The translations under genes and the position numbers were made by a program. Below the pieces are notes generated by a model. The model was not told where the DNA came from. It saw only the letters and a list, made by a program, of their open reading frames with translations, and searched no databases. DNA of 64,000 bases from Terriglobia bacterium (GTDB lineage: Bacteria > Acidobacteriota > Terriglobia > 20CM-2-55-15): contig CAXWPJ010000005.1 of assembly GCA_963664115.2 (NCBI GenBank), forward strand, positions 32,001 to 96,000, written 5' to 3'. Numbering within the stretch: the stretch's first letter is position 1; every line of letters begins with the position of its first letter. This document shows positions 504 to 27,684 of this stretch, piece by piece.

Positions 504-541
504 TCTCAGTTTCCCCGAAGCCGACTTCTCGGGGGTTGAGA
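504..541. repeat. 38-bp palindromic recombination-site candidate, copy 1 (divergent)
   Basis: TCTCAGTTTCCCCGAAGCCGACTTCTCGGGGGTTGAGA aligns without gaps to the reverse complement of the copies at 26303 and 26982. Confidence 0.65.
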
Positions 542-988
542 TTGGATCAGTAAACGAAACGGCGTTACTCGGGAGCGAATCGACACTCTTTAACCCAAGT
601 CGCATAATCAGTTAGGAAACTATGCCGCTCATCGAGCAGCATAATTACATTGTCCGTGCCGGTTCGCTAGAGGTATAAAATGTGCCGAGTAAATCATTCA
701 CATCACTGGTCGACAGTCTCCACAAAACACAGAGGCCGCTGTGAGAAGCGGTCTCGCACAGGTCGACTTAGATGTGCTGCGGGACAGTTGTTGCCCCGCT
801 CTGAGGATGGGAGACTAGCTGGGTAGATCGCAGCCGACCACGGCCACGGTTCGCCAGGCTGGAGGCAGATGCGAGGGCAACGCTCGACGAGTTCGCCGGG
901 ACAGAACTTGTTTGTAATTACATTGTCCGTGCCGGTTCGCCCGCTCTGAGGATGGGAGACTAGCATTGGGTCGATACACGGAGGACCA

Positions 989-1666
989 ATGAAGCAAATC
1001 CTACCAATTCTCTTCCTAGTGGTGCTTTCTTCGCAGCCGACCACGGCCACGGTTCGCCAGGCTGGAGACACACAGGATGCGAGGGCAACGCTGCGCGGAC
1101 TAGACGAGTTCGCCGTAGTTGTTGATCTCAACCTTGAACTCGAGGAAACCGGCCTCAACAAAAACCAGTTACAGACTGACGTCGAGCTCCGGTTGAGGAG
1201 GGACGGTATTCGAGTCACCTCTTCCGGGATGGCCTTCCTTGCCATAAATGTCAATGGTTTCGCCGGTCCCGATCAGACCGGGCTTTATGTGTTTTCTGTG
1301 ACAGCACAGGTCATACAGCCAGTGAGCCTCGTTAGAGACTCCGATATTACAATCTTCGCCGGGACGTGGTCGCTCTCTCTGACCGGCCTCGCCGGAAGTG
1401 CGAGAGTTGAAGGCGGTGTGCGAAACTACGTGGCAGACCTTGTGGACAGTTTCATCAACGCTTACCTGGCAGTGTTTTCTGTGACAGCACAGGTCATACA
1501 GCCAGTGAGCCTCGTTAGAGACTCCGATATTACAATCTTCGCCGGGACGTGGTCGCTCTCTCTGACCGGCCTCGCCGGAAGTGCGAGAGTTGAAGGCGGT
1601 GTGCGAAACTACGTGGCAGACCTTGTGGACAGTTTCATCAACGCTTACCTGGCAGAAAATCGTTAG
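989..1666 (+). CDS. Secreted hypothetical protein with an exact internal 61-aa duplication
   Basis: GGAGG RBS, signal-peptide-like N-terminus MKQILPILFLVVLSS; VFSVTAQV...NAYLA occurs twice. Confidence 0.7.
   Translation: MKQILPILFLVVLSSQPTTATVRQAGDTQDARATLRGLDEFAVVVDLNLELEETGLNKNQLQTDVELRLRRDGIRVTSSGMAFLAINVNGFAGPDQTGLYVFSVTAQVIQPVSLVRDSDITIFAGTWSLSLTGLAGSARVEGGVRNYVADLVDSFINAYLAVFSVTAQVIQPVSLVRDSDITIFAGTWSLSLTGLAGSARVEGGVRNYVADLVDSFINAYLAENR
1289..1654 (+). repeat. Perfect 183-bp tandem duplication (1289-1471 / 1472-1654)
   Basis: Direct comparison; in frame. Confidence 0.95.
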
Positions 1667-1722
1667 AGAGTCCAGCGGGAAATCACGAAGAAGCACGGAA
1701 GGCACAGATAACGAGAATTTCT

Positions 1723-1908
1723 ATGGATCGGCAGACTTTGCTGCGGCAGGAATGCGTACGTGAATTTGAGGCAGTGAAAGCCCAAGTCGCAAGGCTTTTG
1801 AAGCGAGAGGAAAAGTACATAGATCCCGGCCATGCCATCGATCCATCTTCCGGTCGTAACGTGTGGGAGCGATACTGCACGCTCCAATCAGGGAAGAGCG
1901 GCAAGTAA
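1723..1908 (+). CDS. Small hypothetical protein
   Basis: 61-aa ORF directly downstream of 989-1666; no motif recognised. Confidence 0.35.
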   Translation: MDRQTLLRQECVREFEAVKAQVARLLKREEKYIDPGHAIDPSSGRNVWERYCTLQSGKSGK

Positions 1909-1913
1909 AAGCA

Positions 1914-2069
1914 TTAGGAGGCTTCTTTGCGGACGAATGTCCACTCAACGTGCTTGCTGTGAAGCGGACACTCGGGGAACGACTCTCCTTGGAGCATCAT
2001 GATTTCGTAGTCGCAATCGTTCGAGGAGTAGATGCCGGCTTGGGTGCAAAGTTCGCCAGTGCGAAACAT
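1914..2069 (-). CDS. YjzC-like small Cys-containing protein
   Basis: MFRTGELCTQAGIYSSNDC...GESFPECP...VEWTFV resembles the YjzC pattern. Confidence 0.55.
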   Translation of the reverse strand: MFRTGELCTQAGIYSSNDCDYEIMMLQGESFPECPLHSKHVEWTFVRKEAS

Positions 2070-2212
2070 CGGTCGTCTGACATCGCGGCTGTCCACATTC
2101 CCTCCCAGGATGCGGAAATAGGGGCCCAGCCGACCAGCCGGCCAAGGCGAGAGGGTCAGCCAGGCACGGGAGCACTAATCCTTGACAGAGGTGAGAGTGC
2201 GCCCACCCGGAA

Positions 2213-2335
2213 TTATATTCCTGAATTTGACGGTGACGAAGGAAAAGCAACCCCCGGCCCAGTGGACCGACCTGCGGAGCGAGTAAAGAAGAGGAAAAGG
2301 ACGATTACGGCGAAAACTATTACGACTTTTCGCAT
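2213..2335 (-). CDS. 40-aa small membrane peptide (not in the ORF track)
   Basis: GGAGGTGG immediately upstream of ATG; MRKVVIVFAVIVLFLFFTRSAGRSTGPGVAFPSSPSNSGI. Confidence 0.45.
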   Translation of the reverse strand: MRKVVIVFAVIVLFLFFTRSAGRSTGPGVAFPSSPSNSGI

Positions 2336-2545
2336 AATCCACCTCCACCTGAAACTGTGCGCCTGACCGTCACGTATTTCAATAAAAATGGCGCTATGGC
2401 TGGTACATTCGGCACAAATTCTTCTTGGAGGCTAGCATCGAGTTGGTTGGGATTCTTACTCAAAGATCGAACAAAATCGAGCACTTCCCATAATCTCGAC
2501 GGACTTCCGCTGCAAAGAAATCACAGGCCGCGTCTCGGAACCGGC

Positions 2546-2716
2546 ATCCATGCCGCACGCGACCGCCGAATCTTCGAGATGTGGATGGCGTGCTGGACCG
2601 GCGCTGAAATAGCAAAGGCTGTCGGGTGTGATGAGAAAACCGTTTCAGCGGTCGTTTCTGGAAAATCGGCAGAGTTGCCAAATGTCCAGAAAGCCGCCGC
2701 TTCGGTAGTGTCCTAA
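2546..2716 (+). pseudogene. HTH-containing gene fragment
   Basis: RDRRIFEMWMACWTGAEIAKAVGCDEKTVS is HTH-like; no convincing start. Confidence 0.35.
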
Positions 2717-2893
2717 GATTGAGTTGGTAGTTCCTTTGCCAGACGGATTACGTCGTCAGGTGAATACATCTTACCGTCAACCTCGATTTTTGAATCTGGA
2801 CCGAGAACAATGGGCCCTATCTTGTAACCACGTTCCTGAAGCTGATCGACCGCTTCTTTTAATTCAAACAGGCCTGTCATTGCTGGCCTGCAA

Positions 2894-3112
2894 TCAATGT
2901 GAAATCTGTTCCAGGCGGTTGAGGATGCTGGCCTTCTGTTCGTCGGTCAGATTGAGGTTGCATTTTTTGTCGCACAGGATGCAGCGGAAAGGGACATTTC
3001 CGACATCTACGAACCATCGCCATTGAAGATCCGTGTACTGAGGGCTCGGCCTGCCATTGCAGCCGTCTTTTGGGCAATCACCCATCGACAGCGGTATTCT
3101 TTTTTCATCCAT
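2894..3112 (-). CDS. Small putative zinc-binding protein
   Basis: CPKDGC...CILC cysteine pairs in 72 aa. Confidence 0.45.
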   Translation of the reverse strand: MDEKRIPLSMGDCPKDGCNGRPSPQYTDLQWRWFVDVGNVPFRCILCDKKCNLNLTDEQKASILNRLEQISH

Positions 3113-3283
3113 CTCATGACCCTGGTGCTGGACTGTATGGACTGTGAAGTAGCGTTCACCCTGCACATTTCAGGCTGAGACGGTCGAAATCCAAATAATT
3201 CTATCTACGCACAAAGGCCATGGGCAATAAGCGTCTTGAGTCCGGCAGGTCCGCGTTTGAAAGACGCGACCCATCCCCATCTT

Positions 3284-5482
3284 CTAGAAGTTAAAAAGAT
3301 TCGTCAACTTGAACACGATGCCTCGCCCGAGCAGTTGACCGTTGCTGGTATCGCGCAGTTCGTTGTAAACGAGGAAGAGATCGCTCAACGGGTGATGGGT
3401 GAGGTTGAAGCGGATGTTTGAGCTCACCTGATTCGTGTCCGCGTTGTACTGAATGAACGCATTGACAAACGCACGTGGGCTGAACGCATACAGGAAACGG
3501 GCCCCCACCAGGTCCGAGCTAAAACGCCCTTGGGTCAACCTCACCTGGTTGCGCGTGTAGTCCACATCCAACCTGAAATGGATGTTCGGCTTCCAACTCA
3601 CACCCCCGGTAAACGAGCGGCGGCGACCGCTCCAGAACTCACCCCATTCCACAGTTCCGTTCCCGCTGATCTTTCCCGAGGGATTGCTCGAAGCTTCGGC
3701 CGAATAGCTGAGATATCGGTAGTCACCTTCGGGAATGGAGACGCTTTGATGTATCGGAAACACATCCCTCAATCGATCAAACGTCTGAACGATGCTGAGG
3801 TCAGCGGAACCGTTGTTTTCGAACCGAAGGCCCAGGTTCACGCGCTCTTCACGTGTTTCGATCTGTTCGATCTCGCCATCCTCGTAATAATCGAACGTCG
3901 TACCGATCACCAGGTTCCTGAATACGGGACTGGTTTCGAACAGCGGGTTCCAGGAAACTTCCCCGCTGTAATGTGTGTTGTCTCCGCGCCTTACGAACCC
4001 TACTTCAGGATTGAAATTCGTCTGGATCTCGTTGTAACTCGCAACCAGGATCAACTCGTCGTCGCGCCACCGGGCCTCGAACTGCCGCGCCTGATTGAGG
4101 TCGGACAACCCCGCCGTGTCGCTTCGAAGCAGGAAGGAATCCAACTCGAGACGATCGAACTGTAAGTGTGTGTCGACGCCATAGACGCGGTTGTAGTCCC
4201 CATCCCGAGACGACTCCCGGTCCGTCAACAGGCCACCCACCCATGAGTTGGTCAGAAACCTTCTCTTGAGCCGCCCGACCACATATTCGGTGGATGCCGT
4301 CTGGCCCTGACTTTCAGTTTTCATGACGAGAAAACCGATGTCATAGGGTCCTGCCTGTCCGGTCACACGGGCGCCACCGACGATCGGTATCGGTGTTCCC
4401 TGACTGCTCAGCCCGATACGTCTGCTGAAAAACGGAACCAGGTTATTTCCGGCTCCAAAGTTGAACGTCCCCGAATTCTCGAGGAAAAAATCGCGTTTCT
4501 CCGGAAAGAAGAGGTTGAAGCGCGTCAGATTGACCTGTTGCTGATCGACTTCCACCTGCGCAAAGTCTGTACGATACGTGGCGTCGAGCGTAAGTGACGA
4601 CGTCAGACTGTACTTCAGGTCCAAGCCACCGTCGTAGTCGGGATCTGTGTCGAAGTCTCCGAAGGGGTCGTTCGCGGGGCGGACCTGGGTCACGCCGGCA
4701 GTCACGAACGGCGTTATCTTCAGATTACGTCCCGGGCGGATGTTCTCGAGGCCCTCGAGGGTCCCGTACTGCGACACACGAGAGAGGTCCCACCGAATCG
4801 GAATCGGGGTCCAATCGCTCTCTTCGTTGATCCGAAGAATGTTGCGATTCATGTTGATTCCCCACTCCTGGATTGTGGCGCTGGAAAATCGGAGCGTCTT
4901 GAACGGGATCACGAACTCTGCGACCCATCCTTCGGAGTTCTGGGTAACCTGGACGTCCCACACGCCATCCCAATCGGTATTGAATCCGGTCAGGCCGACC
5001 TGGAAATCGGCCTTGGCGCCAGCGGGATTGGTTGTAAACAGAACGCTCGACTGCAGATTGTGGAGACTGTCGATAGCGATGGTGAAGACATCCCCGCTCA
5101 GGTAACCGAAGTCTTCCTCGAGTTCGTTGACCACGATGTTCCCAGGATCGGAGTCATAGCAGAAGACACCGACATAAAGATTGTCTTCATCAAATAAGAA
5201 CCGGGCCTCGGTGCGTTCCAGGGAAGGAGCACCCGGGTTGGGCCGCCGTTGAACAAAGTTTGTGGCCGGAGTCGCCAGGTCCCAGGCCGCCTCGTCCAGA
5301 AGGCCGTCAATGGAAATCTCTTCGGTCATTCCGACTGCTGTGATGACGCGCTCCAAGCGGGCCGCTTCGTAGTCAACGACAATGGGGACATCGGAACCAG
5401 TCACGCCCTGACTGCGGGCGGGCCCCTCAAACAGCATCCCAAGAAGGGCGTAGCAGATAGTCCGTCTCACAAAGTCAGGCAC
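3284..5482 (-). CDS. CBM9-like plus DUF5916 outer-membrane protein
   Basis: Signal peptide, IDGLLDEAAW, IPFKTLRF, TDFAQVEVDQQQVNLTRFNLFFPEKRDFFLE, C-terminal F. Confidence 0.85.
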   Translation of the reverse strand: MPDFVRRTICYALLGMLFEGPARSQGVTGSDVPIVVDYEAARLERVITAVGMTEEISIDGLLDEAAWDLATPATNFVQRRPNPGAPSLERTEARFLFDEDNLYVGVFCYDSDPGNIVVNELEEDFGYLSGDVFTIAIDSLHNLQSSVLFTTNPAGAKADFQVGLTGFNTDWDGVWDVQVTQNSEGWVAEFVIPFKTLRFSSATIQEWGINMNRNILRINEESDWTPIPIRWDLSRVSQYGTLEGLENIRPGRNLKITPFVTAGVTQVRPANDPFGDFDTDPDYDGGLDLKYSLTSSLTLDATYRTDFAQVEVDQQQVNLTRFNLFFPEKRDFFLENSGTFNFGAGNNLVPFFSRRIGLSSQGTPIPIVGGARVTGQAGPYDIGFLVMKTESQGQTASTEYVVGRLKRRFLTNSWVGGLLTDRESSRDGDYNRVYGVDTHLQFDRLELDSFLLRSDTAGLSDLNQARQFEARWRDDELILVASYNEIQTNFNPEVGFVRRGDNTHYSGEVSWNPLFETSPVFRNLVIGTTFDYYEDGEIEQIETREERVNLGLRFENNGSADLSIVQTFDRLRDVFPIHQSVSIPEGDYRYLSYSAEASSNPSGKISGNGTVEWGEFWSGRRRSFTGGVSWKPNIHFRLDVDYTRNQVRLTQGRFSSDLVGARFLYAFSPRAFVNAFIQYNADTNQVSSNIRFNLTHHPLSDLFLVYNELRDTSNGQLLGRGIVFKLTNLFNF

Positions 5483-5648
5483 GTTGCAGCTCCGGATTCC
5501 ATTGTTTCAGCGTGTGTCGAAACGAACCACGGAAACCTGCTACAAGATACGAAATGCGGGGTTTAGAAGCAAACGAAGAGAAATGATTCCCTTGGATGTT
5601 GAGAATCGGGCGAAAACGGAAATTCTCAAGGTCCGCGAAGATGATTTC

Positions 5649-7651
5649 GTAGGGTCGAGCACTGGTGCGGTAACCCGTAGGCCACTCCTTGGCTGTATCC
5701 GGCGTTTCCGCCTTCGTGCCCGTTTAGGAGTGGCCGTAGCTCCGTTTCCAGCGCCCGCCACTTCGCACGCAGCGTGCGGATTTCCCGCACTACGCGCTCC
5801 TGCACACTTCGCCTCAAGGGTTATGAGACCTGTCGAGTGAAAGCGACTATGCAGAATGGCAGGAATAGGACACACGGTAGGCATTGAACAACCCCACCGT
5901 CCCATACAGCCAAGCTGCACTCCACCGCTTCCATCCGAAACCGCGACGCTGACTGGCTCGGGCCCGGTGGGACCGGATCTTCTTTTCAACCCAGGCGCGA
6001 ATGAACTGGAAGCATCCGCTGGAGTGACCAAACGCAAAGTAACGCACCCACCCGCGCAGGATCGGATTGATCTGCTCGATCACCCGATGGAGCGGCTGGG
6101 ACTGCGTACGCTTGAATATCTGATTGAGTCGACGGAGCAACGCGGTCCGCTTTGCTAACTTCGGCGTCCGCAATGCCATCCATCGTCCCCGGCGACTACG
6201 AACGCGCCGGAACTCAAAGCCGAGAAATCCAAAGCTCTCTCCCCGCGTCAGGTCCACCCGTCGGCTCTTCTCCGCATTCACTTCCACCTGAATCTTCGCC
6301 AACTCTTCCCGAAGTCGCTTCTCGACAACCTGCCGAAGCCACTGATACCGCGGATGCGCATCCACCAGGACCACCATGTCATCGGCATACCTGGCGTACT
6401 CGATACACTCCCGCTGCCGGTTCCGGGTAACTTGCTTAGCCCGCTCTAACATCCGATCGACATCATTGAGATAGATGTTACTGAGCAGCGGCGAAATCAC
6501 CCCACCTTGCGGCACACCCTGCTTCCCTGACGCCTTCAGCATCCATTTCAGGAGTCCAAGCACCTCCGGATCGCGGACTCTCTCGGCGACTTTCGCTAAA
6601 ACGATGGGGTGTTTCACCGTGTCGAAGTAGCGTCGCAGATCGAGATCGATCACGTCGGTCTTACCCTCAACGATGGCTCTGGAAACGCGCCCGATGGCAG
6701 CGTGTGCGGTCTTCTTCGGTCGATAGCCGAAGGATCCGGGTTGAAAGTCTGCTTCAAAGATTGGTTCCAGGATCAGCTTCAATGCACCCTGAACCACCCG
6801 GTCCCGGATCGATGGGATCGAAAGCATCCGTTGCTTGCCCCCCTCCTTGGGTATCCCCACCTTCCGGAGCCGTCCGGGTCGATATCTACGTTCGATCAGC
6901 TCCTCTCGAAGCTGGTCGAGAAACCCTTCCACGCCTGCGGCCTCAACGGCGTCAAACGTTACCCCATCGATTCCCGGGGCACCGTCGTTGGCCTTTGCCA
7001 ACCGGTACGCTTCCTGAAGCGTTTCTCGCTTTACCACGTGGATATACAACCCCCAAAAGCGCCAGGCCGGTTCGGCCTTCGCCTTGACGTATAGTCGTCG
7101 CCTCAGGTCTTGCAGACTAATGGGCGCATTTGTCATTTCACCCCTGCCTCCCGTCTTGGTTTCGACCTCATGTACAGCAGGGCCCCTTGGCTCCACGGGC
7201 GTTACTCCGCTTCATCGCTACTACGGACCCGGCCGCCACCGTCTCGTCTGCTCCCGACTTTCCGGTTGTGCCGGTTATACGATCGCTCCTGCTCCACCGA
7301 TTTCTCGATGGGACGAGGACGGTTTCTCCAGTTGCTCGGCATGTCCTTGTCACCGTGCTGCCCCTAATCACCCCGCCGGAGTGACAAGCCGCTTCGGTCA
7401 GATTGCGACATATCATGCTGCCTTCGCCCGTCCCAAGAAGGCTCGGCCTCCGGATCTACTCATTTCGAGGCCACCTCTAGGTTCACTTGCGTTGCGGCCC
7501 GGTGACTCACTCACCATCCTTTCTGATGGCTTTGTCGATCGGCTTCATCCGCTTCGTTTCCTCCACGGATGCGACCCAAGTTACAGAGTCTCTGACTCTT
7601 ACTCTGGTGGGGCTCTATCCCACTGAACATGCCAGCCTTAGCTGGACGCAC
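5649..7651 (-). mobile_element. Group II intron
   Basis: 5' end GTGCG at 7651, 3' end ...CGACCCTAC at 5649, domain V GAGCGCGTAGTGCGGGAAATCCGCACGCTGCGTGCG near 5765-5800, encodes an RT. Confidence 0.93.
5847..7136 (-). CDS. ltrA: Group II intron reverse transcriptase/maturase, no endonuclease domain
   Basis: APGIDG, PSIRDRVVQ, GVPQGGVISPLLSNIYL, YADD, NPILRGW maturase motif. Confidence 0.93.
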   Translation of the reverse strand: MTNAPISLQDLRRRLYVKAKAEPAWRFWGLYIHVVKRETLQEAYRLAKANDGAPGIDGVTFDAVEAAGVEGFLDQLREELIERRYRPGRLRKVGIPKEGGKQRMLSIPSIRDRVVQGALKLILEPIFEADFQPGSFGYRPKKTAHAAIGRVSRAIVEGKTDVIDLDLRRYFDTVKHPIVLAKVAERVRDPEVLGLLKWMLKASGKQGVPQGGVISPLLSNIYLNDVDRMLERAKQVTRNRQRECIEYARYADDMVVLVDAHPRYQWLRQVVEKRLREELAKIQVEVNAEKSRRVDLTRGESFGFLGFEFRRVRSRRGRWMALRTPKLAKRTALLRRLNQIFKRTQSQPLHRVIEQINPILRGWVRYFAFGHSSGCFQFIRAWVEKKIRSHRARASQRRGFGWKRWSAAWLYGTVGLFNAYRVSYSCHSA

Positions 7652-7777
7652 TCAGGACTTGAGAATGGATTTCAGGGCACCGGCACCCGTTCCTTCAGTT
7701 CTTCAAACCAGTTAAGGACGATGTTGATTTGGGGAGAGGCCGCTAAGTCCGTTTGGCCTTCAGGTAACGCCACTAGA

Positions 7778-9489
7778 CCCTGAACAAGCGTGATTGACGA
7801 GGAAATGATAGTGCAATAAGAGCGGAAGTACCCGAAATGCCCCCTCTCCGTGCGAAAAAAACCTTGGACAGATTCTTCGGAAAAGGAGGCATTTCAGATG
7901 AACGATTATACGCGCAAGAACATGAGGAACCGCAAGCGGCGAATCGAACGTCGGCTTGGGGACCGGCATTGGACGGATCAGGTAGAGCCGATGTTTTCGG
8001 CGAGCAACATTCAGTACGAGATGGGAGAGCGGACGCGGGGCACATCGGTTGGTGGTATCGGGACGATGCAACTGGTGGCGCGGCGGACCGGGCTGATCGA
8101 AGCCATCGACAAGGGCGTGCATGTGTTGAAGCGGCACCTGCCGTATCACGAGTCGGATCACGTGCTGAACATCGCCTACAACGCCTTGAGCGGAGGAACG
8201 TGCCTGGAAGACATCGAACTGCGGCGCAACGATGCGGTGTATCTGGATGCGCTGGGAGCGCAACGGATTCCGGATCCGACGACGGCGGGAGACTTCTGCC
8301 GGAGATTCGAGGCCGACGACGTGGAGTGTCTGATGGAGGCAACCAATCAAGTCCGGCTCGGAGTCTGGCGACAGCAACCGGCGGCGTTTTTCGAAGAAGC
8401 GGTGTTGGACGCGGACGGGACACTGGCCGAAACCACGGGGGAATGCAAGCAAGGGATGGACGTGGCCTACGACGGGACGTGGGGATATCACCCGCTGATG
8501 ATCTCGCTGGCCAACACCGCCGAACCGCTGTATCTGGTCAATCGTAGCGGCAACCGGCCGTCGCATGAAGGAGCCGCGGTCCGGTTCTGATTGTGCCGGC
8601 ATGCTTCCTGCTGCGCGGGGACACGGACTTCAGCCAGACCCGGCTCTGGACGGATCCAGGTGGGTTTCATATTCGGGATTGACGCGATGGCGAACCTGAA
8701 GGCCCGGGCCGATGAACTGGAGCCGCGCCAGTGGAAGCGCCTGGAACGGCCCGCGAAATACGACGTGCGACGACAACGTGAAGGAAGAGATCGTTCGGCA
8801 GCGCGGTTTCGACAATATCCGCTTGCAGGATGTGGCCGAGTTTCGGTATTTCGGAGCCTGCGATCGGGACTACCGTGTCGTCGTGTGCGGAAGAATCTGT
8901 CGGTGGCCAAAGGAGAGCAGGTGTTGTTTGACGACATCCGGTACTTCTTCTACATTACCAACCGTTCGGATCCGGCCGACCAGATTGTGATGCGTGAACG
9001 GTGCAATCAGGAGCCAGTTGAAGAACGGCGTTCAGGCTTGCGGAGCCGGTGGACCAGCAACTGGGCCTCAGGTCACTTGGACACTGAAAGCGTGGTTTGC
9101 ATTGCTGCTTCCCGAAACCGGACGTTGGGGCAAAAATATCAGGCTGAGGCAAACCGTGCTGCGCGTTCAAAACCTTCTTGAACGTCATCTTGTGCCGTCA
9201 ACTCGTGCGCACCGGGCGGCGCATTCTGTTCCGGATCCTGGCCTGGAACCGGTGGTTGCCGGTCTTGTTCCGCGGGGTGGATGTGTTGGACGATGTTGAC
9301 CCGATCATGACTCTGAGCCCGGGCGATCGAGGTCCCGGTTTCTGTCAACCGTCCAACACCAGCGAGGCTGAACTGGCCAGATTCAACAGAAACTCGATAC
9401 CTGGAACAGGCCATCCGGGAACGGGATTCTATGCCTCGAATTCTATCGGCGCGAACTGGGCCTCGGCGGATCTGGGCGCTTGTTTTGGG
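7778..9489 (+). mobile_element. IS1380-family element with frameshifted transposase
   Basis: Ends CCCTGAACAAGCG / CGCTTGTTTTGGG, ACTAGA duplicated at 7772-7777 and 9490-9495; PDPTTAGDFCRRF, LDADGT, GYHPL motifs; many indels after 8580. Confidence 0.85.
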
Positions 9490-14214: not shown

Positions 14215-14262
14215 GGGCACCGGCACCCGCTCCTTCAGTTCTTCAAACCGATTCAGGACGTG
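14213..14262 (-). pseudogene. Kinase 3'-end stub
   Basis: Encodes HVLNRFEELKERVPVP*, same tail as 7672. Confidence 0.8.
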
Positions 14263-14267
14263 CTGTA

Positions 14268-15743: not shown

Positions 15744-15993
15744 CTACACCGTAACAAAGTTGGACGGAAGTGAGCCTCGAAAATCTTCGCAAATTCAACT
15801 ACAGGCATGATTGATAAGCAAGAAAGTTGTCAACTCGCTTTTCTTGGGTGATTCTCAACGTCCGAGAAGATGATTTATTGATGGTATGGACTCCTCTTTG
15901 ATGACTGAGTCGGCATCGAAGTGCCAAAGTCATTTTGAGCCTCGCAATAAAGCGGGCGAAACACGTGTACGTGTGAACAAAAAGGAGTCCGAG

Positions 15994-17028: not shown

Positions 17029-17039
17029 CCCGAAACAGT

Positions 17040-17300
17040 CGGAATATCTTTTCAGCGAGCTGCGATGAGGTTCGAGATGATGGCGTACCGGTCAGACCGG
17101 CGCGGGGCAACGCCGACAAGTCCTTTGGCCCTTAGAGGCCGTTATTTTATCGGTTGGCTCCCCGCGCGCAAATTTCCATCATGGCCTGGAACAATACAGT
17201 TCCACTTTTGAGGCCGAAGATACGGGTGCAGTCGACTAGCTACTCACCTCGTAACTTCTAGTCAGTCCTGCTGAATGCATTTTGCCGAAGAAAGCTGACG
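17040..17300 (+). ncRNA. Putative bridge/seek RNA of the IS1111 element
   Basis: Two GGCC-closed internal loops; one holds CAAGTCCT and TTTATCG (target matches), the other CCATCAT and AGATA (IS end matches); boundaries approximate. Confidence 0.7.
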
Positions 17301-17355
17301 GGAGAGCTGCGCCTACTTGACAGAGGAGTCCAGATACAGGACTTGACCTCGAAAA

Positions 17356-17415
17356 TCAGGGCACCGGCACCCGTTCCTTCAGTTCTTCAAACCAGTTCAG
17401 GACGATGTTGATTAC
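17356..17415 (-). pseudogene. Kinase 3'-end stub
   Basis: INIVLNWFEELKERVPVP*; stop lies 7 nt from site copy 3. Confidence 0.85.
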
Positions 17416-17637: not shown

Positions 17638-19701
17638 TCAGAAGATCTCCGGTACTGAAAACACCAGAATACCCTGATTGCGCATGTCGGAGACGATCAC
17701 TTCCTGATCTTCCGGGTTCAGAACCACTCCGAAAGGCTTCTTGAGCTGGGTTGTAGGGCCCACAGGGATTTTCCAAATCGGAGGAACATCCCCGTTATCA
17801 TCGTAACTCCAGACGCCTATAAACGCTTCCTCCGGTTCCATTTGATCTTGAATCCCTGGCATCGCGGCAATGATCAGCCTCCGCTGGGGATACATCTGCA
17901 TCTGGTTGATCCGGATAATTTCCGACTTCGGACCGCGGATAACAGCCCGTGGCGCTACGTTTCCTTCGTCCGTCCGGTTAAACACCAGGATTGCGCCTGT
18001 CTCCGAGTCACTTCTCCCTATGCTGGCCCTATAGGTTCCGAAGTTGCTCTGTGTTCCGACGACCAGAAGATCGTTGATCGGATCCACGGCAATCGCATGA
18101 AGTCTCCCCAACCTGGTGTCCGGGCCCTTGATCACTCGAATCGGTGCAACGTCACCGTTGGCTTCGCGCGGATAGACCTTAATACTGTCGTTGGTGTAGG
18201 TGAAAATCTCATCGTGAATGTTGTCCACGTCCAGCCGGTCGCTGATCGGCCCGGTTCTGGGGCCCTGGATAGTGCGAATGGGCGACTCCTGTCCATCGGC
18301 TCCTCCGGCGAACGTCAGTATGGCCTCTCCATAAGGGACAGGTACAACGATTTCATCGTTGACCGCGTCGTAGCGTATGTCATGCATGGTGCGGGACAGC
18401 CTGCTGGCCTGTCCATAGAGTGTTCGGACCGGTGTTTCTCCTCCGTCCGCCAACCTGGCGAACATCGCAATCTGCGGATGCGCCACTCAGTTGGGCACCA
18501 GGATCTGTCCCCGTCTGCTGTCGTAGCCAACGGCTCCGGGATTGCCGATCATGAGGCTCTCCGTCCCTACTGGCGCTCCTCGAATCGTTCTAATGGGTTC
18601 GACATCCCCATTGGCCGTCACCGGGAAAACCGTAACCGAGGGGGTTCCCATGCTCGCCACAAACAACTCGTCCAGTCGTTCATCCAGCGCAATACCAGGA
18701 GGATGTTGGATTCCGGTATTGGGTCCCGCGATGACGCGGATCGGAGCCACATCGCCTTCGGCCGAGGCGTCGAATATCAGTATGGAGCTGTCGGCATCAT
18801 TGGCCACAAACAGTTCCTGCCTTTCATTGTGCAGTGCCATGTGTGAAGGCCAATTCATTAACGTTCGAGGTCCTTCGATAGTCCGAAGAGGTGCCGTATT
18901 TCCTGAAGCGTTCAGGGGATACACGGTGATTGATGGCAGCTCAAAGCTGCCATAGGTTTCACCGGTCTCCGGATTCAGGTTTTGAGCATTGCCGAAATTG
19001 CTCACGTACATGAGATTGTTTGTCGTGTCCAGGGCAATCCCGTGCGGATCTTCCAGTTGCGTATCCGGTCCTTCGAGAGTCCGAAGTGGTTGTTCTTCAC
19101 CTTCGGCCTGCTTGCGGAACACATGCACGTAACCGCTCTGATTCACGACGAACAACTCCTGCCGTACTTCGTCCGCGGCAACGGAGAATCCACGAATGCT
19201 TGCCAGGAACCGATCCGGCGCGACGTTGCCCCGGGCGTCTGTCGAAAAAACCGGCAACCAACGCTGCGTATCATTGTTGAGCACATAGATGTCCAGGGTC
19301 ACCGGGTCAATGTAGACCCCACACATCATTTCGGCTTTTGTGTTGGTTCCCGAAATGACACGTCGGGGTTCTGTGAAACGGGCTTGAGGCGGCGTATCTT
19401 CGCGACTGTCATACTCCAGGATCTGAAACAAATTCTCGTCCGTGACCACCAGCATGTTGTTTTCGGAATTGACGGCCACGGCGCTAAACGCCGGATTCGG
19501 ATCTCGGATGAAACGCAGCGGAGGTCGCTCAATCACCACCGGCGTCCTGTCCTCCTGGCCCTGCACCGCCGTCACGGCCGCAGACGCAACCCCGGCAACG
19601 TCGCCGCTATCGATTAGAACGGCTTGAGCCATCCAGACGATCAATCCCGCTAAGACGAGCTGAAGTCGCCAACCTTTCCCGTCGCGAAAAGTTTTAGCCA
19701 T
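17638..19701 (-). CDS. Secreted NHL/YVTN-like beta-propeller protein with in-frame TGA at 18487-18489 (404 aa + 282 aa halves, 687 aa if read through)
   Basis: Repeats such as PHGIALD...ITVYP...GNTAPLRTIEGP; ...QILVPN*VAHPQIAMF in one frame. Confidence 0.8.
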
Positions 19702-19859
19702 TGCTCAACCTCCAATGGGAGAACCCTTATGTACTTGAATATTGGCGCGATTATCAGAGGACCGATAATCAAAGTCAAGCGTATGGGCGAATGTGAAGAC
19801 TTTTGGCAACAAAGCAGGTGTGGGTATGTGACGATTCCAACGCTTGAGCAAGGGGGCTG

Positions 19860-19983
19860 GCAGGGTCTTGATCGCCACTTTACGCCCGAGCTTCGTGTCA
19901 CGAGCACGCCACACTTCTCCCATACCACCTTTGCCGAGGAGTGTGCCGATCTCGTAGTGGCCCAGTTTGGTGCCAGATTCCAT
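19860..19983 (-). pseudogene. Kinase 5'-end stub
   Basis: [42 protein letters not shown], then unrelated sequence. Confidence 0.88.
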
Positions 19984-20010
19984 CGTTATAGTGTGTCGCT
20001 GAAATACAGT

Positions 20011-20097
20011 GAAAAACTCTGCAAAGGATACTAAGGCAGGAAGTTAGGCGCTATTAAATTCTCAAGTCCTGAGAAACGACATTCTCGGACCTTGAGA
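20011..20097 (-). repeat. Left 87-bp inverted repeat including 38-bp site copy 4 (20060-20097)
   Basis: 86/87 identical to the reverse complement of 21232-21318; site TCTCAAGTCCTGAGAAACGACATTCTCGGACCTTGAGA. Confidence 0.95.
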
Positions 20098-21231: not shown

Positions 21232-21318
21232 TCTCAAGGTCCGAGAATGTCGTTTCTCAGGACTTGAGAATTTAATAGCGCCTAAGTTCCTGCCTTAGTA
21301 TCCTTTGCAGAGTTTTTC
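21232..21318 (+). repeat. Right 87-bp inverted repeat including 38-bp site copy 5 (21232-21269)
   Basis: Site is the exact reverse complement of 20060-20097. Confidence 0.95.
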
Positions 21319-21346
21319 GCAGCTTTTTCAGCGACACACTTTAAAC

Positions 21347-21556
21347 ATGGAATCTGGCACCAAACTCGGTCATTACGAGATCTCAACGCTTTTAGGTAAG
21401 GGTGGAATGGGTGAAGTGTGGCGTGCTCGTGATACCAAGCTCGGGCGCGAAGTTGCGATCAAGACTCTTCCTGCAGAGTTTGCGAAGGATTCAGATCGAC
21501 TCGCCCGGTTTGAACGTGAAGCCAAGCTGCGGATCAGCGGTATAAGCAGTGTCTGA
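21347..21556 (+). pseudogene. Kinase 5'-end stub
   Basis: [61 protein letters not shown], then stop. Confidence 0.88.
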
Positions 21557-21842: not shown

Positions 21843-24008
21843 CTAGAACAGCTCCGGCACGTGGAAACTCAACACTGCGTTCTGCTTCATGTCGGACACT
21901 ATGACCGTCTGGTTCTTCGGGTCCAGCGCCATGCCAAAGGGCTTAACGAGTACCTCACCGGGTCCGGCAAAAGTCCAGCGCGGTTCAATGTTGCCATCGT
22001 CTTCGTGGATGTCCCAGACGCCCACATGTGGCGCCTTGTCGTCCGGTCCTCGGATGGCCGCAAAAATCAAACCGCGCGGTGGGAAAACACGAAGCGCTCT
22101 GAGACCTGACAGCTCCGCCTTCGCCCCCCGGATGGACCTGAGGGGCTGCGCATTGCCTTCGGCAGTACGCTCAAAGATGAATATGCCGCGGTTGCCCCCA
22201 GTGACCAGCAGATCGTTGAGGGTATCGACCGCAACCTGCCCCTGGGCTCCCTCCAGAATACGGATCGGCGCCACATTGCCATTCGCCTCCCGCGGGAAGA
22301 CCAGGATTCTACCTGAGTCGGGAACCAGGATTTCGTTGTTAACCGGATCGACCACCATCTTGTCGGGCCGACGCAGCTGAGTCCGGCTGCCTTGAATCAC
22401 TCGCAGTGGAGGCTCTGCTCCATCGGCTCCGCCCCGAAACGTCATGATCGCCTGGGCAAACTGTTGCGGCACCACAACCTCGTCGTTCACCTCATCGTAT
22501 TCGATGCCGTGCATCGTTCGGCCCAGTAGTGTCGACTGTCCTTCGATTCTGCGCATCGGGGCAGCTGCTCCATCCGCCAACCTGGCGAAAGCCGCAATTT
22601 GCGGGTGGGCCACTCAGTTGGGCACTAGAATAGCCTCCCTCTTCGTGTCGTACGCCAGAGCTCCCGGATTGCCGATCATCAAGGCCCTTTGTCCCGCCGG
22701 GGCGCTGCGGATCATGCGAAGGGGGGGAGTGTCACCTTCGGCCCCCAGCTCGAAAACGGTCAGCGAATTATTACCGTAGTTGGCCACCCAGAGCTCTTCG
22801 TTCTTGATGTCCAGAAACAAGCCGACGGGGCTGTCCAGCATCGTTTGTGGCCCCTTCAACACTCGAATTGGCGCCACATCGCCATCCGCGTCGGACGTGA
22901 ACACCAGGATTGATTGCCCGGTGTCGTTGGCAACATACAACTCGCCGCGACGCTCATCCACACCGATACCAGAGGGCCAGTTCAACTGTGTCTTCGGTCC
23001 TACGATGACTCGCACTGGCGGCGCATCGCCGCTGGCGGAGCGCTCGTGGACTGTGATGGCCGGGGGCAAAAATCTCCCCGACCCGGGTACCGCCATGTTG
23101 CGTCCTAACGGTCGAGTCGGCTCCAGGTCATTCGCATCGGCTCCTTCAGCCGATCTGCTGGACACGTGCCCGTGGTTCGTTACATAGATCAGGTCATGCC
23201 CTTTATCGACGGCGATCCCGTGAGGGTTGGCCAGGCGGGTTCGGTCACCTTGCAGCAACCGGATCGGCGGCTCATCCCCTGACGCGAGCTTGCGGAACAC
23301 CACAACTGCGCTGTTGTGCTGGCTGGTCAGGAAGAGCTCCTGATTCTCATCATCCACGGCGATTCCACGCCCTCTGGTCGAATAACCCGTGTTCAGTTGG
23401 CGCGCAGGCGGCACATTCCCTTCCTGATCGCGGGAGAAAACCAGCATTTTAGCGGCGGTATCGGCATGGGTGGCGTAAATGTCTCCCGAGAGCGGATCGA
23501 CATACAGACCGCACACGAACTCAATCTCCGTTTGGTCTCCACCCAAGATCCGCTTTGGTTCAGTCAACGCCGCATTGGGCGGCGTATTCGCCGTTCGGTC
23601 ATACACCAGGATCTGGTGCAGGTTTTCGTCGGCCGCCACCACCTCGTTGCGGTCCGCGTCCACGGAGACGCCGCTAAAGCTGGGACTCGAATCTCGGATA
23701 ACCCGTACGGGATCCCTTCTGAGCCGCACCGTCCGAGATGGTTCCTGCAATGGGAACGCTCGGGCGCCCCCAACTCCCGACATGAGGAGTCCAGCCTGCC
23801 TCTGACCCGCTGCGGCAGCCGAAGCGGTGCTAGCGCTGCCCACCCGCCCTTCCGAAAGCGGTTGATAGCCGTTGAGCCCGGCCTCGTTGCCGGGCTGCCC
23901 CTTCTCTGGGTCCAACGCCGACGAAAGTAGGACCAGGGACAGGCTGACCATCGTGATACCGAGCACCGTCCGTATCAAGGTGCGGTTCGTTTTCGGTGTC
24001 TCAAACAT
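21843..24008 (-). CDS. Paralogous NHL/YVTN-like beta-propeller protein with in-frame TGA at 22614-22616 (464 aa + 256 aa, 721 aa if read through)
   Basis: ...AILVPN*VAHPQIAAF; same repeat type as 17638-19701. Confidence 0.8.
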
Positions 24009-24146
24009 GTCTGATTCTCCGTGAATTCATATCCGACCAATTCCTACCGGATCATCCTTGTTGGCCTCGTGCGCCGTAACATAGGCTTCCAGCCTGTGAA
24101 TTCCAAACTTCGGGACGCAGCACTCAACGGTATTATACATTGCCAG

Positions 24147-24938
24147 GGCATTGTCAGGTTATGTCCCCAGCGTGCAGACTGACGGGATGAAGACGCGACG
24201 ATCCCGCTACATCAGGCACCGATTTCCTCCAGAGATTATCAGCCATGCTGTCTGGCTCTACTACCGATTCAGTCTGAGTTTCCGGAATGTCGAGGATCTG
24301 CTCGCTGAGCGCGGCGTGAACGTGACCTACGAATCGATCCGCCAGTGGTCCGTCAAGTTCGGAGCTCAGTATGCGCGTCGATTGAAACGACGCCAGGGGC
24401 GTCTCGGTGACACATGGCACCTGGACGAGGTCTTCGTCACGATTAACGGTGAAAGGCAATATCTCTGGCGTGCCGTGGATCAAGACGGTGATGTGATCGA
24501 TATTTTTGTTACAGCCCCGTCGGGATGGGCGTGCGGCGCGGAGATTCTTTCGGAAGCTGTTAAAGCATCAGGGAAAGGAACCATTCCGTCTCGTGACCGA
24601 CAAGCTGGGCAGCTACCGTGTCGCACATCGCGAACTCACGCCCCTGATCACCCATGATTCCCGCCAATATGCGAACAATTGGGCCGAGGTGTCACACCAG
24701 CCAACGCGACAACGCGAGCGACAAATGCGATGCTTCAAGTCGCCGGATCAGGCTCAGCGCTTCTTGCACGTTCACGGAGTCGTTCAGAATCTCTTTAGAC
24801 TGGCACGACACCGACTCAGGTCGGCTCACTATCGAATGTTGCGCACACGATCCTTCTCGACGTGGGCAGCCGTAACCACAGCGTGAGGTTTGCCTTCCCG
24901 GTCTTTTTCTGCCTTGCGCCAGCTAATTTCACAGTACC
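24147..24938 (+). mobile_element. IS6-family element, transposase frameshifted near 24508
   Basis: RHRFPPEIISHAVWLYYRFSLSFR, WHLDEVFV, TDKLGSY, NNWAEVSHQP; IR GGCATTGTCAGGTTA / TAATTTCACAGTACC. Confidence 0.85.
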
Positions 24939-24953
24939 CCCACGAGGGGGAGG

Positions 24954-26012
24954 CTACTGTGACGATTCCAGGAACCAACCCAGCTGTGCCTCGGCGCACT
25001 CACCGACGACGGTCAGATGACGCTGGACGGCTTCTGAGTCAACGAAGGGGTGCGGTTCGCCCGGGTTCCGAAATCGGAGACCGTTGACCTTGGCCAAGGT
25101 ATTGTCATGGTTCGTATGACTGGCCAGAAAGACATCAACGCGGGCCCTTAGTGCGATGTCTCGAAAACGCCGCGCCGAGGCGCTATAGATTGCTAGGCCC
25201 TCTGAACGCTCCGGCCAGTACCGGACCCCCATGGAATTACCTCCCCAGATGCTTCCCAAATGCCAGCGGTCTCCATCCTTGAGTGGAATCAAGGTCGATA
25301 TCGTCCCCGGGGTGTGACCAGGCGTGATATAGAGCGTTACGGTGGTATCACCCAGCGTCAGTTCCATCCCGTCCGTGGCCACCATGTCTTTCCTGGGCTT
25401 CAACTCTGGCGGACTGTTGTCGTTGGCTACGAGATTCCAATCGGCCTCAGACATGATGATGCGCGCTCCGTACCTGTCCTGGAGCGTCTTAGCTCCGTAA
25501 TAGTGGTCGGAATGGCCGTGGGCAATAATGACGTACTTGATGTCGGCCGCATCAAGCCCCATCTGTCGCAGTCCGTCGACGATTTCGTCCTCGACCATAT
25601 AGTCGTAGGCCGTATCGTGGAGAATAATTCCTTCCGAAGTCGTCACCGCCCACATCGCTAGGCCTTGGATGTACGATCCGTCAGCAAGAGTCATCTCATT
25701 GCTACCGATGTAATAAAGGTTGTCGAATATTTTATGTGGCGGTTCGTACCATAGTTCGCGCGGTGGAATCGTTCGGGGGGGCCGCGCAGCCGTCGGCGCC
25801 GCAGGCGGCCGAGCGGACGCATTGATGACGTTTCTAGAGAACTCTCCGCAATTCCTGTCGAATATCCAGGTGAAATCATTTCCAGGTGAGTATGCCGCAG
25901 CCTTGGCTGCGGCCTCATGACTTTCCGGTGTACCGGTCTGCGCGTTCGATTCAGTCGAAATCCAACCGCCTGCAAGCAGGATCGAGAGCACGGACGGCAA
26001 GTAGCGCTTCAT
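24954..26012 (-). CDS. Secreted metallo-beta-lactamase-fold hydrolase (subclass B3-like)
   Basis: Signal peptide; KIFDNLYYIG, HGHSDH, TPGHTPG, LASH. Confidence 0.85.
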   Translation of the reverse strand: MKRYLPSVLSILLAGGWISTESNAQTGTPESHEAAAKAAAYSPGNDFTWIFDRNCGEFSRNVINASARPPAAPTAARPPRTIPPRELWYEPPHKIFDNLYYIGSNEMTLADGSYIQGLAMWAVTTSEGIILHDTAYDYMVEDEIVDGLRQMGLDAADIKYVIIAHGHSDHYYGAKTLQDRYGARIIMSEADWNLVANDNSPPELKPRKDMVATDGMELTLGDTTVTLYITPGHTPGTISTLIPLKDGDRWHLGSIWGGNSMGVRYWPERSEGLAIYSASARRFRDIALRARVDVFLASHTNHDNTLAKVNGLRFRNPGEPHPFVDSEAVQRHLTVVGECAEAQLGWFLESSQ

Positions 26013-26302: not shown

Positions 26303-26340
26303 TCCCAAGTCCCGATAAATCATCTTCTCGGACGTTGAGA
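26303..26340. repeat. 38-bp site copy 6
   Basis: TCCCAAGTCCCGATAAATCATCTTCTCGGACGTTGAGA. Confidence 0.9.
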
Positions 26341-26479
26341 ATTGGCGAGCAGAATTCCCCCGGAAAAATTCAGAAGCCGAACGACCCAGGGGTCGCCGGA
26401 GTCCCAAGCGATGGGCCCCCACTTTGAAGTCAAGCCACTCGCATGCCGTGCTTTGCTTTTCGGCACGCAAACTGCAACC

Positions 26480-26608
26480 TCAGTCAGCCTGCACTTTGCC
26501 TGGTACAATTTCGGTCGAATTCACCAGACATTGAGGGTCAAGCCCGCGATGGAAGTGGATATCACGGACCACATATGGACGTGGGAGGAAATCCTGGGAG
26601 ATAGATAA
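26480..26608 (+). pseudogene. C-terminal remnant of an IS1-like transposase
   Basis: SLHFAWYNFGRIHQTLRVKPAMEVDITDHIWTWEEIL. Confidence 0.6.
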
Positions 26609-26668
26609 CCGCCGCTTGATTAGGAATTACCCAACCGGATCGGTTCTGGCCCAGCTTTGGGCCAGCGT

Positions 26669-26869
26669 CTATGGCGTTGGAGGTATAAAAGTGACGCCAT
26701 TTCTTTCAATAAATATTTTCGGAGTCAATGGCGCACCATCCGAACAGTCTGCCCCAGAACTAACAATCACACCTTCACCCACGGTAATCAGAATGCACAC
26801 GGGCATTGAAGGGGCAATCCGCTCCTCCAGATCCTCTATCCGTACATCCAACTCGATGAATTCATCCAT
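26669..26869 (-). CDS. 66-aa peptide with LEERIAP leader-like motif
   Basis: AAGGAG RBS; MDEFIELDVRIEDLEERIAP followed by a two-Cys core. Confidence 0.6.
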   Translation of the reverse strand: MDEFIELDVRIEDLEERIAPSMPVCILITVGEGVIVSSGADCSDGAPLTPKIFIERNGVTFIPPTP

Positions 26870-26981
26870 GATCTGCTCCTTGGCGGGAACCCTATCATGG
26901 AGCCATCCAGACGGCTAGGTTTTCGGAAGAGAGTGTCCTAAGTGTCCCCGAACATCCCAGCATTTCCTCCGAATCTTCCCG

Positions 26982-27019
26982 GGTCAAGTCCTGATAAATC
27001 ATCTTCGCGGAAGTTGAGA
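26982..27019. repeat. 38-bp site copy 7
   Basis: GGTCAAGTCCTGATAAATCATCTTCGCGGAAGTTGAGA. Confidence 0.9.
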
Positions 27020-27108
27020 ATTAGTTTTGTTAGCAGATGTAGGTTACTGTCGATTTCTAAACAGATGCAATTAGTCGCCCGCGTTTACACGCGAGCAAGG
27101 AGATCATC

Positions 27109-27396
27109 ATGGCAGTCGGAGTTCAGCTTGATTTCGAGGGCGCAACAATAGAACAATACGACCAGATCTTAGAAAAGATGGGCTTAACCCACCGAGGACC
27201 GGGCGGACCGGGTAGTTTGTTCCATTGGGTGACGAAGACGGAGAACGGCCTGCGTGCCACCGATGTTTGGGAGTCCCGTGAGGTTTTCGAGAAGTTCGCA
27301 GAAGAGAAGATTGGACCGATCTCCCAAGCGGTGGGGGTTCCCGCTGCACCTGTGATCCAGTTCTTCGAGGTTTACAACTACCTCACCGCGGGCTGA
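27109..27396 (+). CDS. Small ABM/Dabb-like protein
   Basis: AAGGAG RBS; EQYDQI...LFHW...TDVWESREVFEKF. Confidence 0.7.
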   Translation: MAVGVQLDFEGATIEQYDQILEKMGLTHRGPGGPGSLFHWVTKTENGLRATDVWESREVFEKFAEEKIGPISQAVGVPAAPVIQFFEVYNYLTAG

Positions 27397-27507
27397 GCTG
27401 AAAATGGGATTGGGGGTCGTTACCCGGAGGCTTTAGCCGGGACCCAGATGCGCCAATGTGGTCGGGTGAGCGACTCGTCGCGGGAGTCGCTCTGGACCAG
27501 AACCGGC

Positions 27508-27578
27508 TGGCCCAGCCGCAGATCAACATCGTCCTCAACTGGTTTGAAGAACTGAAGGAACGGGTGCCGGTGCCGTGA
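27508..27578 (+). pseudogene. Kinase 3'-end stub
   Basis: PQINIVLNWFEELKERVPVP*. Confidence 0.85.
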
Positions 27579-27684
27579 AGCAGGTCGTTCGTCCCCGCCT
27601 GTAGCCCGTCAGAGCATTTCGCACAGAATCCGCTGAAAAACTAAGAGACACTTTTCTAATCAGAACGATCTGAAGGAGGATCGA

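Follow-up and report, generated by a model that had tools for sequence, protein, structure and literature searches.

Arrays of 34-bp sites around an Xer-like tyrosine recombinase gene in a Terriglobia bacterium: a candidate cassette system resembling dif modules

Introduction

What does an intact tyrosine recombinase gene do at the point from which two arrays of short repeated sites radiate, and is it this enzyme that moves the genes lying between them? The question is raised by a 64,000-bp stretch of DNA from a Terriglobia bacterium (Acidobacteriota; assembly GCA_963664115.2, contig CAXWPJ010000005.1), the whole of which is here termed the window and which corresponds to C5:32001-96000 of genome G000 (4.89 Mb in 12 contigs). 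Feature positions are window positions, and those with a contig prefix (such as C2) refer to G000. The original prediction, made from the letters of the window, was of a platform for gene capture or shuffling driven by an enzyme other than the integron integrase IntI. The analysis leans, with some reserve and from sequence comparison, towards the sites being recombination sites at which the Xer-like family of the adjacent recombinase acts, either alone or together with host XerC. The shuffling of modules and the non-IntI enzyme at the centre of a two-armed array are thereby retained from the original prediction, but the sites are not confined to the locus.

The sites and their arrays

The core of the site is 34 bp long and consists of two unequal 14-bp arms on either side of a 6-bp centre (14-6-14). 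An iterated matrix run on G000 returns 194 full and 57 half matches, compared with none in a shuffled genome, which excludes chance. The centre is ATCATC in 137 copies (class A) and ACGACA or ACGACC in 20 (class B), with a total of 220 classed sites that comprise 180 A and 40 B. These are clustered, as 200 of the 220 have a neighbour within 8 kb, compared with at most 142 in 1000 random placements, and 186 of them form 25 arrays over 455 kb, or about 9% of the chromosome. A genome-wide motif scan, which the original prediction had proposed, thus finds that the sites are real but not local to the recombinase.

Orientation follows class. Among 164 neighbour pairs, A-A pairs are direct in 108 of 111 cases and A-B pairs are inverted in all 49, so that 110 pairs are direct and 49 of the 54 inverted ones bring together different spacers. 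Four B-B pairs make up the remainder, with two direct (both involving half sites) and two inverted, one of which encloses 104 bp and the other the recombinase gene. The same rule is kept in 16 regions of the congeners G001-G003 (42/43 and 12/12), these regions having been picked for their site matches. Within the window, the seven sites and the mirror-symmetric layout of the original prediction are recovered as four whole cores, two copies split by a group II intron and by the insertion sequence (IS) IS110, and one diverged copy (506-539), with proximal sites of class B (ACGACA) and distal sites of class A (ATCATC). On the right arm, for instance, two A sites with the ATCATC spacer, at 26305..26338 (+) and 26984..27017 (+), bound a 636-bp direct-repeat module.

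A role for the site as a promoter is not supported, since a -10 box after its TTGAGA is found in 3 of 148 cases against a background of 5.1. The B sites flank the enzyme gene with a conserved leader, yet the 40 B sites are spread over the genome. In one otherwise conserved B-site leader, at C2:88920, there is a (CT)n tract, which is a possible slippage switch, and related tracts occur in loose ends from two public sequencing runs, X3 and X7. A conserved non-coding 104-bp module also lies between facing sites, once between two B sites, at C2:319910-320057, C9:911001-911148, C9:1230771-1230918, C11:41221-41368, C12:149839-149986 and C12:509719-509866; it is possibly a small RNA, an accessory sequence or a recombinase-free hub.

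The recombinase and its frame

The tyrosine recombinase of the window (P0001; 20189-21139, minus strand) is intact, as the original prediction held, with 316 amino acids (aa) and a match to PF00589. It has core-binding and catalytic domains and the complete R-K-H-R-H-Y set (R165/K191/H261/R264/H287/Y296), from which activity is predicted. It is present as one copy in G000, where the next-best proteins are 24-29% identical. What kind of tyrosine recombinase is it? The scores fall below the NCBIfam curated cut-offs for XerC (127 bits against 335), XerD (123 against 330), XerA (113 against 220) and XerS (60 against 267), and the score on TIGR02249, the IntI model, is 60.8 bits against a cut-off of 265. 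Alignment to XerD and XerA reveals no long insertion, so the absence of the IntI-specific insertion, noted at the outset, holds. The closest sequences in the PDB are archaeal XerA and XerD, and a fold search gives generic Cre/Xer matches only (template-modelling score, TM, 0.37-0.45; predicted TM of the model 0.54).

The gene sits between two inverted B sites, at the place where the polarity of the array changes. The left B site, with spacer ACGACA, is at 20062..20095 (+), with its XerC-like arm facing the recombinase, and the right B site, at 21234..21267 (-), has an identical core; both are within a 96-bp inverted repeat (20002-20097 / 21232-21327) that encloses the gene. Of 325 B pairs these two are the closest match (0.95, where the median is 0.60), which fits a recent exchange between them.

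Other recombinases are encoded in the genome. XerC and XerD are encoded separately, both above their NCBIfam cut-offs, and an IntI is found at C9:714590-715759, with 439 bits on TIGR02249. This IntI has no attC-like box within 7 kb, and on its contig the nearest site is about 195 kb away; G002 likewise encodes an integron integrase. There are also six identical genes for a 293-aa tyrosine recombinase, at C1:92965, C1:107675, C2:196490, C12:35350, C12:158198 and C12:487026, each with a site or half site no more than about 100-300 bp away. These presumably resemble the integrases that accompany IS91-like elements. The 293-aa enzyme was set aside as the catalyst: relatives are found in G004, a genome without a matching site, and the G003 loci that were retrieved contain none.

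Movement of modules and the point of crossover

Is there a record of movement at the sites? A 1246-bp module is present at C2:264297 and at C6:43763 in copies 99.8% identical to each other, with neighbours that differ on both sides, and modules of 346 bp and 419 bp likewise occur as near-identical copies beside different neighbours, while several other whole-module copies are plain segmental duplicates. The identity of the rearranged modules changes inside the site in every case, in keeping with the expectation of the original prediction that breaks in module order and synteny would map there, and 26 of 418 alignments of congener regions (G001-G003) to G000 end at a site in both genomes. Strict pairs that share one flank number eight on the right and five on the left, some of them duplicated.

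Where within the site the exchange falls is less sharply defined. Positions 16, 27, 28 and 34 are linked to neither flank and are common to neighbouring sites no more than at random, and crossover mapping gave no single point. Since the variable arm positions assort freely from both flanks, crossovers would not be strictly confined to the centre, which suggests junction migration or conversion across near-identical arms.

Contigs from six public runs provide a further view. The depth of the recombinase contig is 4.6 and 5.1 against 17-25 in the flanking contigs in runs X3 and X7 and is equal to them in X1 and X4, which is only a hint that the recombinase module is polymorphic, as contig depth does not give a share of cells. 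Joints that restore an IS110-free site (15878 to 17337) have sides of less than 30 nt and may stem from other copies. Multi-module blocks of more than 99% identity also occur twice in G000, at C6:24-48 kb and C11:1-8 and 55-58 kb, and at C2:0.5-5.3 and 162-167 kb; these are either recent block moves or assembly duplicates.

Homologues and their own site families

The homologue family is large, with all 8000 of the 8000 candidates scored belonging to it and hence at least 8000 members, and the homologue loci that carry a title are all from Acidobacteriota. Catalytic residues are kept in 110-114 of 114 homologues. The G000 matrix finds no match at 55 homologue loci, from which it follows that other lineages use other sites, and a de novo motif search downstream of homologues returned a conserved small gene only. 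Three further families of sites, with their two classes denoted P and Q, can nonetheless be recognised. T-type sites have an 8-bp centre and 221 matches against one in shuffled sequence, and are direct in 38 of 40 Q-Q pairs and inverted in 74 of 78 P-Q pairs. U-type sites have a 6-bp centre and the second arm of the G000 site, with P-Q pairs inverted in 12 of 13 cases. V-type sites follow suit (19 of 20 P-Q pairs inverted), although their loci come nearer to alternation. Weak V-type sites also surround a homologue (WP_013573308.1) on plasmid pACIX905 of Granulicella tundricola MP5ACTX9.

The framing of the enzyme gene recurs as well. At T loci, which were not dereplicated for these counts, an inverted P is the first site upstream of the gene in 32 of 39 cases and the first downstream in 33 of 38, with both found in 19 of 26, and the P-pair order that frames the enzyme is seen in none of 135 other adjacent pairs. 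Inverted-pair framing is found in addition at L044, L195, L203 and L024, and full mirror arrays at L036, L195, L203 and L024. In a search for inverted repeats around the gene at 48 loci, clear pairs were present at L195, L044, L203, L199, L024 and L212 and most others were at background level, so framing is not shown for most of the unlabelled clades. Paired sites, as read by eye, lie beside the gene at L098-L106 and L170. A probable fifth site family, with a GCCCTG-like centre, occurs just downstream of the recombinase at L013, L020, L029, L012 and L202, beside enzymes of the W clade.

In the 48 of 114 tree rows that carry a site label, the type of site matches the clade of the enzyme with two exceptions, and in a quick tree the Shimodaira-Hasegawa-like approximate likelihood ratio (SH-aLRT) support is 99 for T, 94 for U and 100 for V. 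Clade-diagnostic columns are enriched in predicted helices 37-56, 81-100 and 239-252, which hold 11 of the 30 within 54 of 296 columns (p=0.011), or 10 of 30 within 35 columns under limits set by eye; by homology these are the helices that read DNA in XerH (PMC5241119). For helix 36-48, P0001 compares better with the U clade (0.67) than with the sequences next to it in the tree (0.55), and it is the U sites that have the second arm of the P0001 site. In the G063 bin a T-clade enzyme is found among T sites and a U-clade enzyme lies on a contig with seven of the eight U sites of that bin.

Adjacent enzyme or host XerC and XerD?

Several observations weigh against an adjacent enzyme that acts on the sites. 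The 25 arrays are accompanied by one enzyme gene, which goes halfway towards the outcome that the original prediction took as damaging to itself, a motif scattered over the genome independently of the recombinase. G002 (97% complete, 2 contigs) has 91 site matches and G003 has 41, and in neither is there a homologue or remnant down to an E-value of 1e-9, even though the arrays there keep the orientation rule. Co-occurrence of site and recombinase, put forward originally as a check, turns out to be weak. Among 120 genomes of another order, the one to which G061 belongs, any homologue is present in 5 of the 13 with three or more T sites compared with 27 of the other 107 (p=0.33). In the tree, 66 of 114 rows are without a site label, the T clade leaves out two rows labelled T and the branch to P0001 is long. 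G063 may be a mixed bin, and the agreement of clade and site could arise from a gene and its flanking sites travelling together. A strict crossover at the centre is contradicted in four of the eight right-shared and two of the five left-shared pairs, where the two sites differ in the arm expected to move together with the shared flank. No inversion, circle or rearrangement is directly seen in the contigs of the six public runs, and there is no joint at the B sites, although contigs cannot reveal an inversion across the 96-bp repeat. Directly repeated xrs of Acinetobacter did not excise in tests in E. coli (PMC11705084). Finally, one arm of the site looks like the XerC arm of dif, as described below.

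With homologues of at least 55% identity the comparison among the 120 genomes, counted by hand, gives 5/13 against 15/107 (p=0.04), with the proviso that related genomes are not independent in either test, and of the 11 of those genomes whose homologue was placed on the tree, the T-clade ones (G152 and G177) both have T sites. In G001, with 10 matches, the homologue is broken and 54% identical, and the 20 kb around it contain no site. Sites without an enzyme could be orphan arrays, or the bins could have lost a variable module, but host XerC and XerD could account for the gaps as well.

The last possibility amounts to an alternative with a lesser but substantial chance of being correct, namely that these are dif-module sites run by host XerC/XerD, in which the recombinase is a passenger or a selfish gene in a B-bounded module. 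What do the arms say? A candidate dif is found at C2:108118, close to the skew maximum (99,962); it is kept in G001-G004 and G007 and agrees with acidobacterial predictions in three rows of the supplement of PMC3025954. On a profile of ten acidobacterial dif XerC arms, the site arm that faces the recombinase scores 9.5 bits, where the 99.9th percentile of random sequence is 5.1, and this points to host XerC. The dif of G061 has 13 of 14 bases in common with the XerC-like arm and its outer flank, and the second arms of T-type sites are, by eye, about two transitions from the dif XerD arm. The existence of 6- and 8-bp centres and of C, D and CD modules, as in Acinetobacter (PMC13141974), and the frequent lack of the enzyme in site-rich genomes, also accord with the action of the host pair, both members of which are present in G000. 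On the XerD-arm profile, however, the second arm of the G000 site scores -1.8 bits, compared with 18.3 for dif itself and 0.5 for the 99th percentile of random sequence. Site families are quite different between hosts whose dif is almost the same, and the G063 bin has two families each beside its own enzyme clade. Moreover, if the recombinase were a passenger there would be no evident reason for it to be framed only by an inverted P or B pair, nor for clades to vary in the helices that read DNA. Action by one enzyme on unequal arms has a precedent in XerH and difH (PMC5241119). As an observation apart, G002 has extra dif-like copies with two mismatches each (L190, L191 and L192) beside its main dif.

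It is improbable that the motif is a selfish repeat like the repetitive extragenic palindromes (REP), or a regulator site, with the rearrangements due to homologous recombination or IS activity. The motif is certainly dispersed in many copies, it is enzyme-free in congeners, and its variable positions are unlinked to the flanks, as conversion would give, but such an origin sits poorly with a two-class orientation rule in four site families, an invariant asymmetric centre (137 ATCATC), the dif-like anatomy, the fixed framing of the enzyme and the lack of a -10 box. Least probable of all are attC-like hairpins recombined in single-stranded form by the genome's IntI or by P0001. In their favour, G000 has an IntI, the sites fold with two bulges at a mean of -6.3 kcal/mol compared with -2.4 when shuffled, a stop codon is present 8 nt ahead of 83 of 121 A sites, and the site is a target of a group II intron and of IS110s, as reported for attC. 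Against them, the boxes RYYYAAC and GTTRRRY are each found in only 10 of 117 strong A sites (in line with the original prediction), no covariation is seen between mirror positions 16 and 27 (z about 1), array polarity does not track GC skew (8 against 4, the skew being weak), the IntI is distant, P0001 scores poorly as an IntI and the stop codons are largely part of a kinase scar.

Proposed mechanism

How would the sites operate if the adjacent recombinase family acts on them? Recombination would take place on double-stranded DNA and between sites with the same spacer only. Exchange between direct A copies would excise or insert modules, and two successive exchanges would swap modules between arrays or replicons, whereas exchange between the two B sites across the enzyme gene would invert that gene. 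Inversion between proximal and distal sites, which the original prediction envisaged, is unlikely in view of their different spacers, on a spacer rule taken from PMC13141974; it is the two proximal sites that have a spacer in common. Arrays without an enzyme would be orphans comparable to attC clusters that lack an integrase, either supplied in trans or abandoned.

Kinase scars and the possible birth of modules

The sites bear a mark of where modules may come from. Last codons of a Ser/Thr kinase-PD40 gene adjoin 70 of 154 A sites, and a kinase-PD40 leader or start follows 22 of 31 B sites, while only five near-full-length kinase-PD40 genes are left in G000. Most of the 3' scars measure 40-74 nt and have unrelated DNA ahead of them, and their peak at 67 nt partly reflects the point at which kinase paralogues diverge. 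In congeners a kinase tail is also found at 24 of 65 A sites. Both arms of the window read as B site, kinase start, cargo and kinase tails (7671, 14214, 17356 and 27522). The simplest reading suggested by this pattern is repeated replacement, by cargo, of the interior of a site-bounded kinase module, in which incoming foreign DNA would leave the leader and the last codons as scars. The birth of cassettes is a long-open question for integrons and dif modules alike, and kinase scars would represent a visible and testable trace of it.

Comparison with known systems

The G000 system works most like the dif modules of Acinetobacter, while departing from two of their defining features and from the integron tests; the dif module is therefore a nearer model than the integron that was first proposed. 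Shared with the Acinetobacter modules (pdif/xrs) are unequal arms, a 6-bp centre, C, D and CD modules, spacer classes that would limit partners, accessory cargo and targeting by IS (PMC13141974, PMC11705084, PMC6449649, PMC12907356; see also 10.1101/2022.12.17.520857). An XerC-like arm with a centre of 6-8 bp is common to both, as are junctions inside the site, which in G000 are not limited to the 6-bp centre. The departures are that the second arm is not like the XerD arm of host dif, and that the inverted C/D alternation of dif modules, for which CD is the exception, is replaced by an arrangement in which two thirds of neighbours are direct. Also unlike Acinetobacter are the 14-bp arms, the two fixed spacer classes, the roughly 220 chromosomal sites, the recombinase gene framed by an inverted B pair and the kinase scars. 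Such arrays are called characteristic of Acinetobacter in PMC6449649, and G000 belongs to another phylum.

Integrons and CALINs, the integrase-free attC clusters (PMC4889954), are alike in their mostly co-directional arrays of small cassettes, their enzyme-free arrays and the introns and IS110s in their sites. In contrast, P0001 fails TIGR02249 and has no IntI insertion, the sites have no attC boxes, hairpin covariation or strand bias, and two arms radiate from the enzyme gene, probably with no single attI. The system is not an integron. With the single-recombinase Xer systems (XerH/difH, XerS/difSL, XerA; PMC5241119, PMC2731167) it has in common one enzyme and unequal arms, but these act on one chromosomal site, whereas here XerC, XerD and dif are separate and sites are counted in hundreds.

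Shufflons and invertases (Rci/sfx, Hin/hix) also have a recombinase that lies within, or adjoins, a segment with inverted sites at its ends, and shufflons swap the 3' end of one gene between inverted sites of the same type. In G000 most neighbours are direct, whole-gene modules recur across arrays and no common 5' gene with a swapped 3' end is seen. A description of such a system was not found in a search of the open literature; PMC3469429 counts acidobacterial integrase genes and, in the portion available, describes no sites.

Taken more broadly, and more tentatively than the action of the enzyme on the sites, this may be a third kind of cassette system alongside integrons and dif modules, with a dedicated, phylum-wide Xer-like family in which each clade has its own site, an invertible hub between two B sites, mirror arrays made of two site classes that do not interchange, dozens of orphan arrays served in trans, and new cassettes gained when the inside of a template module is replaced. 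Several lineages of the Acidobacteriota, an abundant phylum that has been little studied, have related arrays, which may be a main route of accessory-gene traffic that is missed by integron and pdif finders. If the reading is true, thousands of recombinases, each with 34-bp sites specific to its clade and with spacers that do not interchange, would also supply orthogonal Cre-like tools. Should host XerC/XerD prove to be responsible, dif modules would still be extended far beyond Acinetobacter and with an unexpected second arm.

Selfish elements in the sites

The sites are themselves targets. Two IS110 types are found in them, with seven and seven left ends and three right ends, together with HTH_38-rve elements, presumably IS30-like, with six, four and two ends, and a DDE_5 element, which is taken to be IS701-like, with three ends. 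The same IS110 end recurs in runs X3 and X6, where the recombinase contig passes into it from within the right B site. Insertion of group II introns and IS110s is also reported for attC (PMC3001079).

Arms and cargo of the window

The left arm extends from the recombinase towards the start of the window. The left B site is followed by its conserved leader and a 51-codon kinase 5' remnant at 19831..20061 (-), which reads away from the recombinase, and by a beta-propeller gene in two frames at 17638..19701 (-). A kinase-PD40 3' tail at 17356..17413 (-), identified by repeat comparison, adjoins the A site split by IS110 at 15855..17346 (-), the parts of which are 17337-17346 and 15855-15878, with the transposase at 15886-17028; the IS110 end seen here occurs in seven sites genome-wide. 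There follows an LVIVD-repeat protein at 14268..15743 (-) and then a kinase tail at 14214-14260 with no site left, and beyond these a Ser/Thr kinase-PD40 gene at 9139..13062 (-) that is broken by an IS256-family element. Another kinase-PD40 3' tail, at 7671..7729 (-) by repeat and kinase comparison, adjoins the A site at 5626..7662 (-), which is split into 7652-7662 and 5626-5648 by a group II intron (5649-7651; RVT_1, GIIM and RF02003) that begins with GTGCG. Facing this A site is a degenerate eighth copy at 5569..5602 (+), with an arm score of 9.7 and a spacing like that of the common short A/B pairs, which are 12-15 bp apart. The outermost cargo is a DUF5916 protein at 3284..5482 (-), and the outermost site is the diverged copy at 506..539 (-), which is in the distal orientation and has a third spacer class, GTCGGC; it scores less than 12 on the full matrix, below threshold, and was read on its arms alone (24.2 against 18.8 in the other orientation).

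On the right, the B-site leader and a 64-codon kinase 5' remnant, at 21268..21538 (+), again read away from the recombinase and are followed at 21843..26012 (-) by an NHL/propeller gene, IS6-like fragments and a gene with a metallo-beta-lactamase fold. Beyond the two A sites of this arm a kinase 3' tail at 27522..27579 (+) is without its A site, an IS beginning at about 27596. Domain matches thus locate the cargo that was originally named, with DUF5916, the kinase-PD40 (broken by IS elements), LVIVD, propellers and the metallo-beta-lactamase fold.

Elsewhere in the window, 27600-30397 holds two IS copies (HTH_Tnp_1 and rve) head to head, with 1308 bp perfectly inverted, and a third copy is at 42183-43676. 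Three repeat families (D7, D9 and D11) between 41271 and 52177 resemble a cluster of paralogous genes, and a 183-bp exact tandem duplication at 1289-1654 lies within an open reading frame that has no Pfam match.

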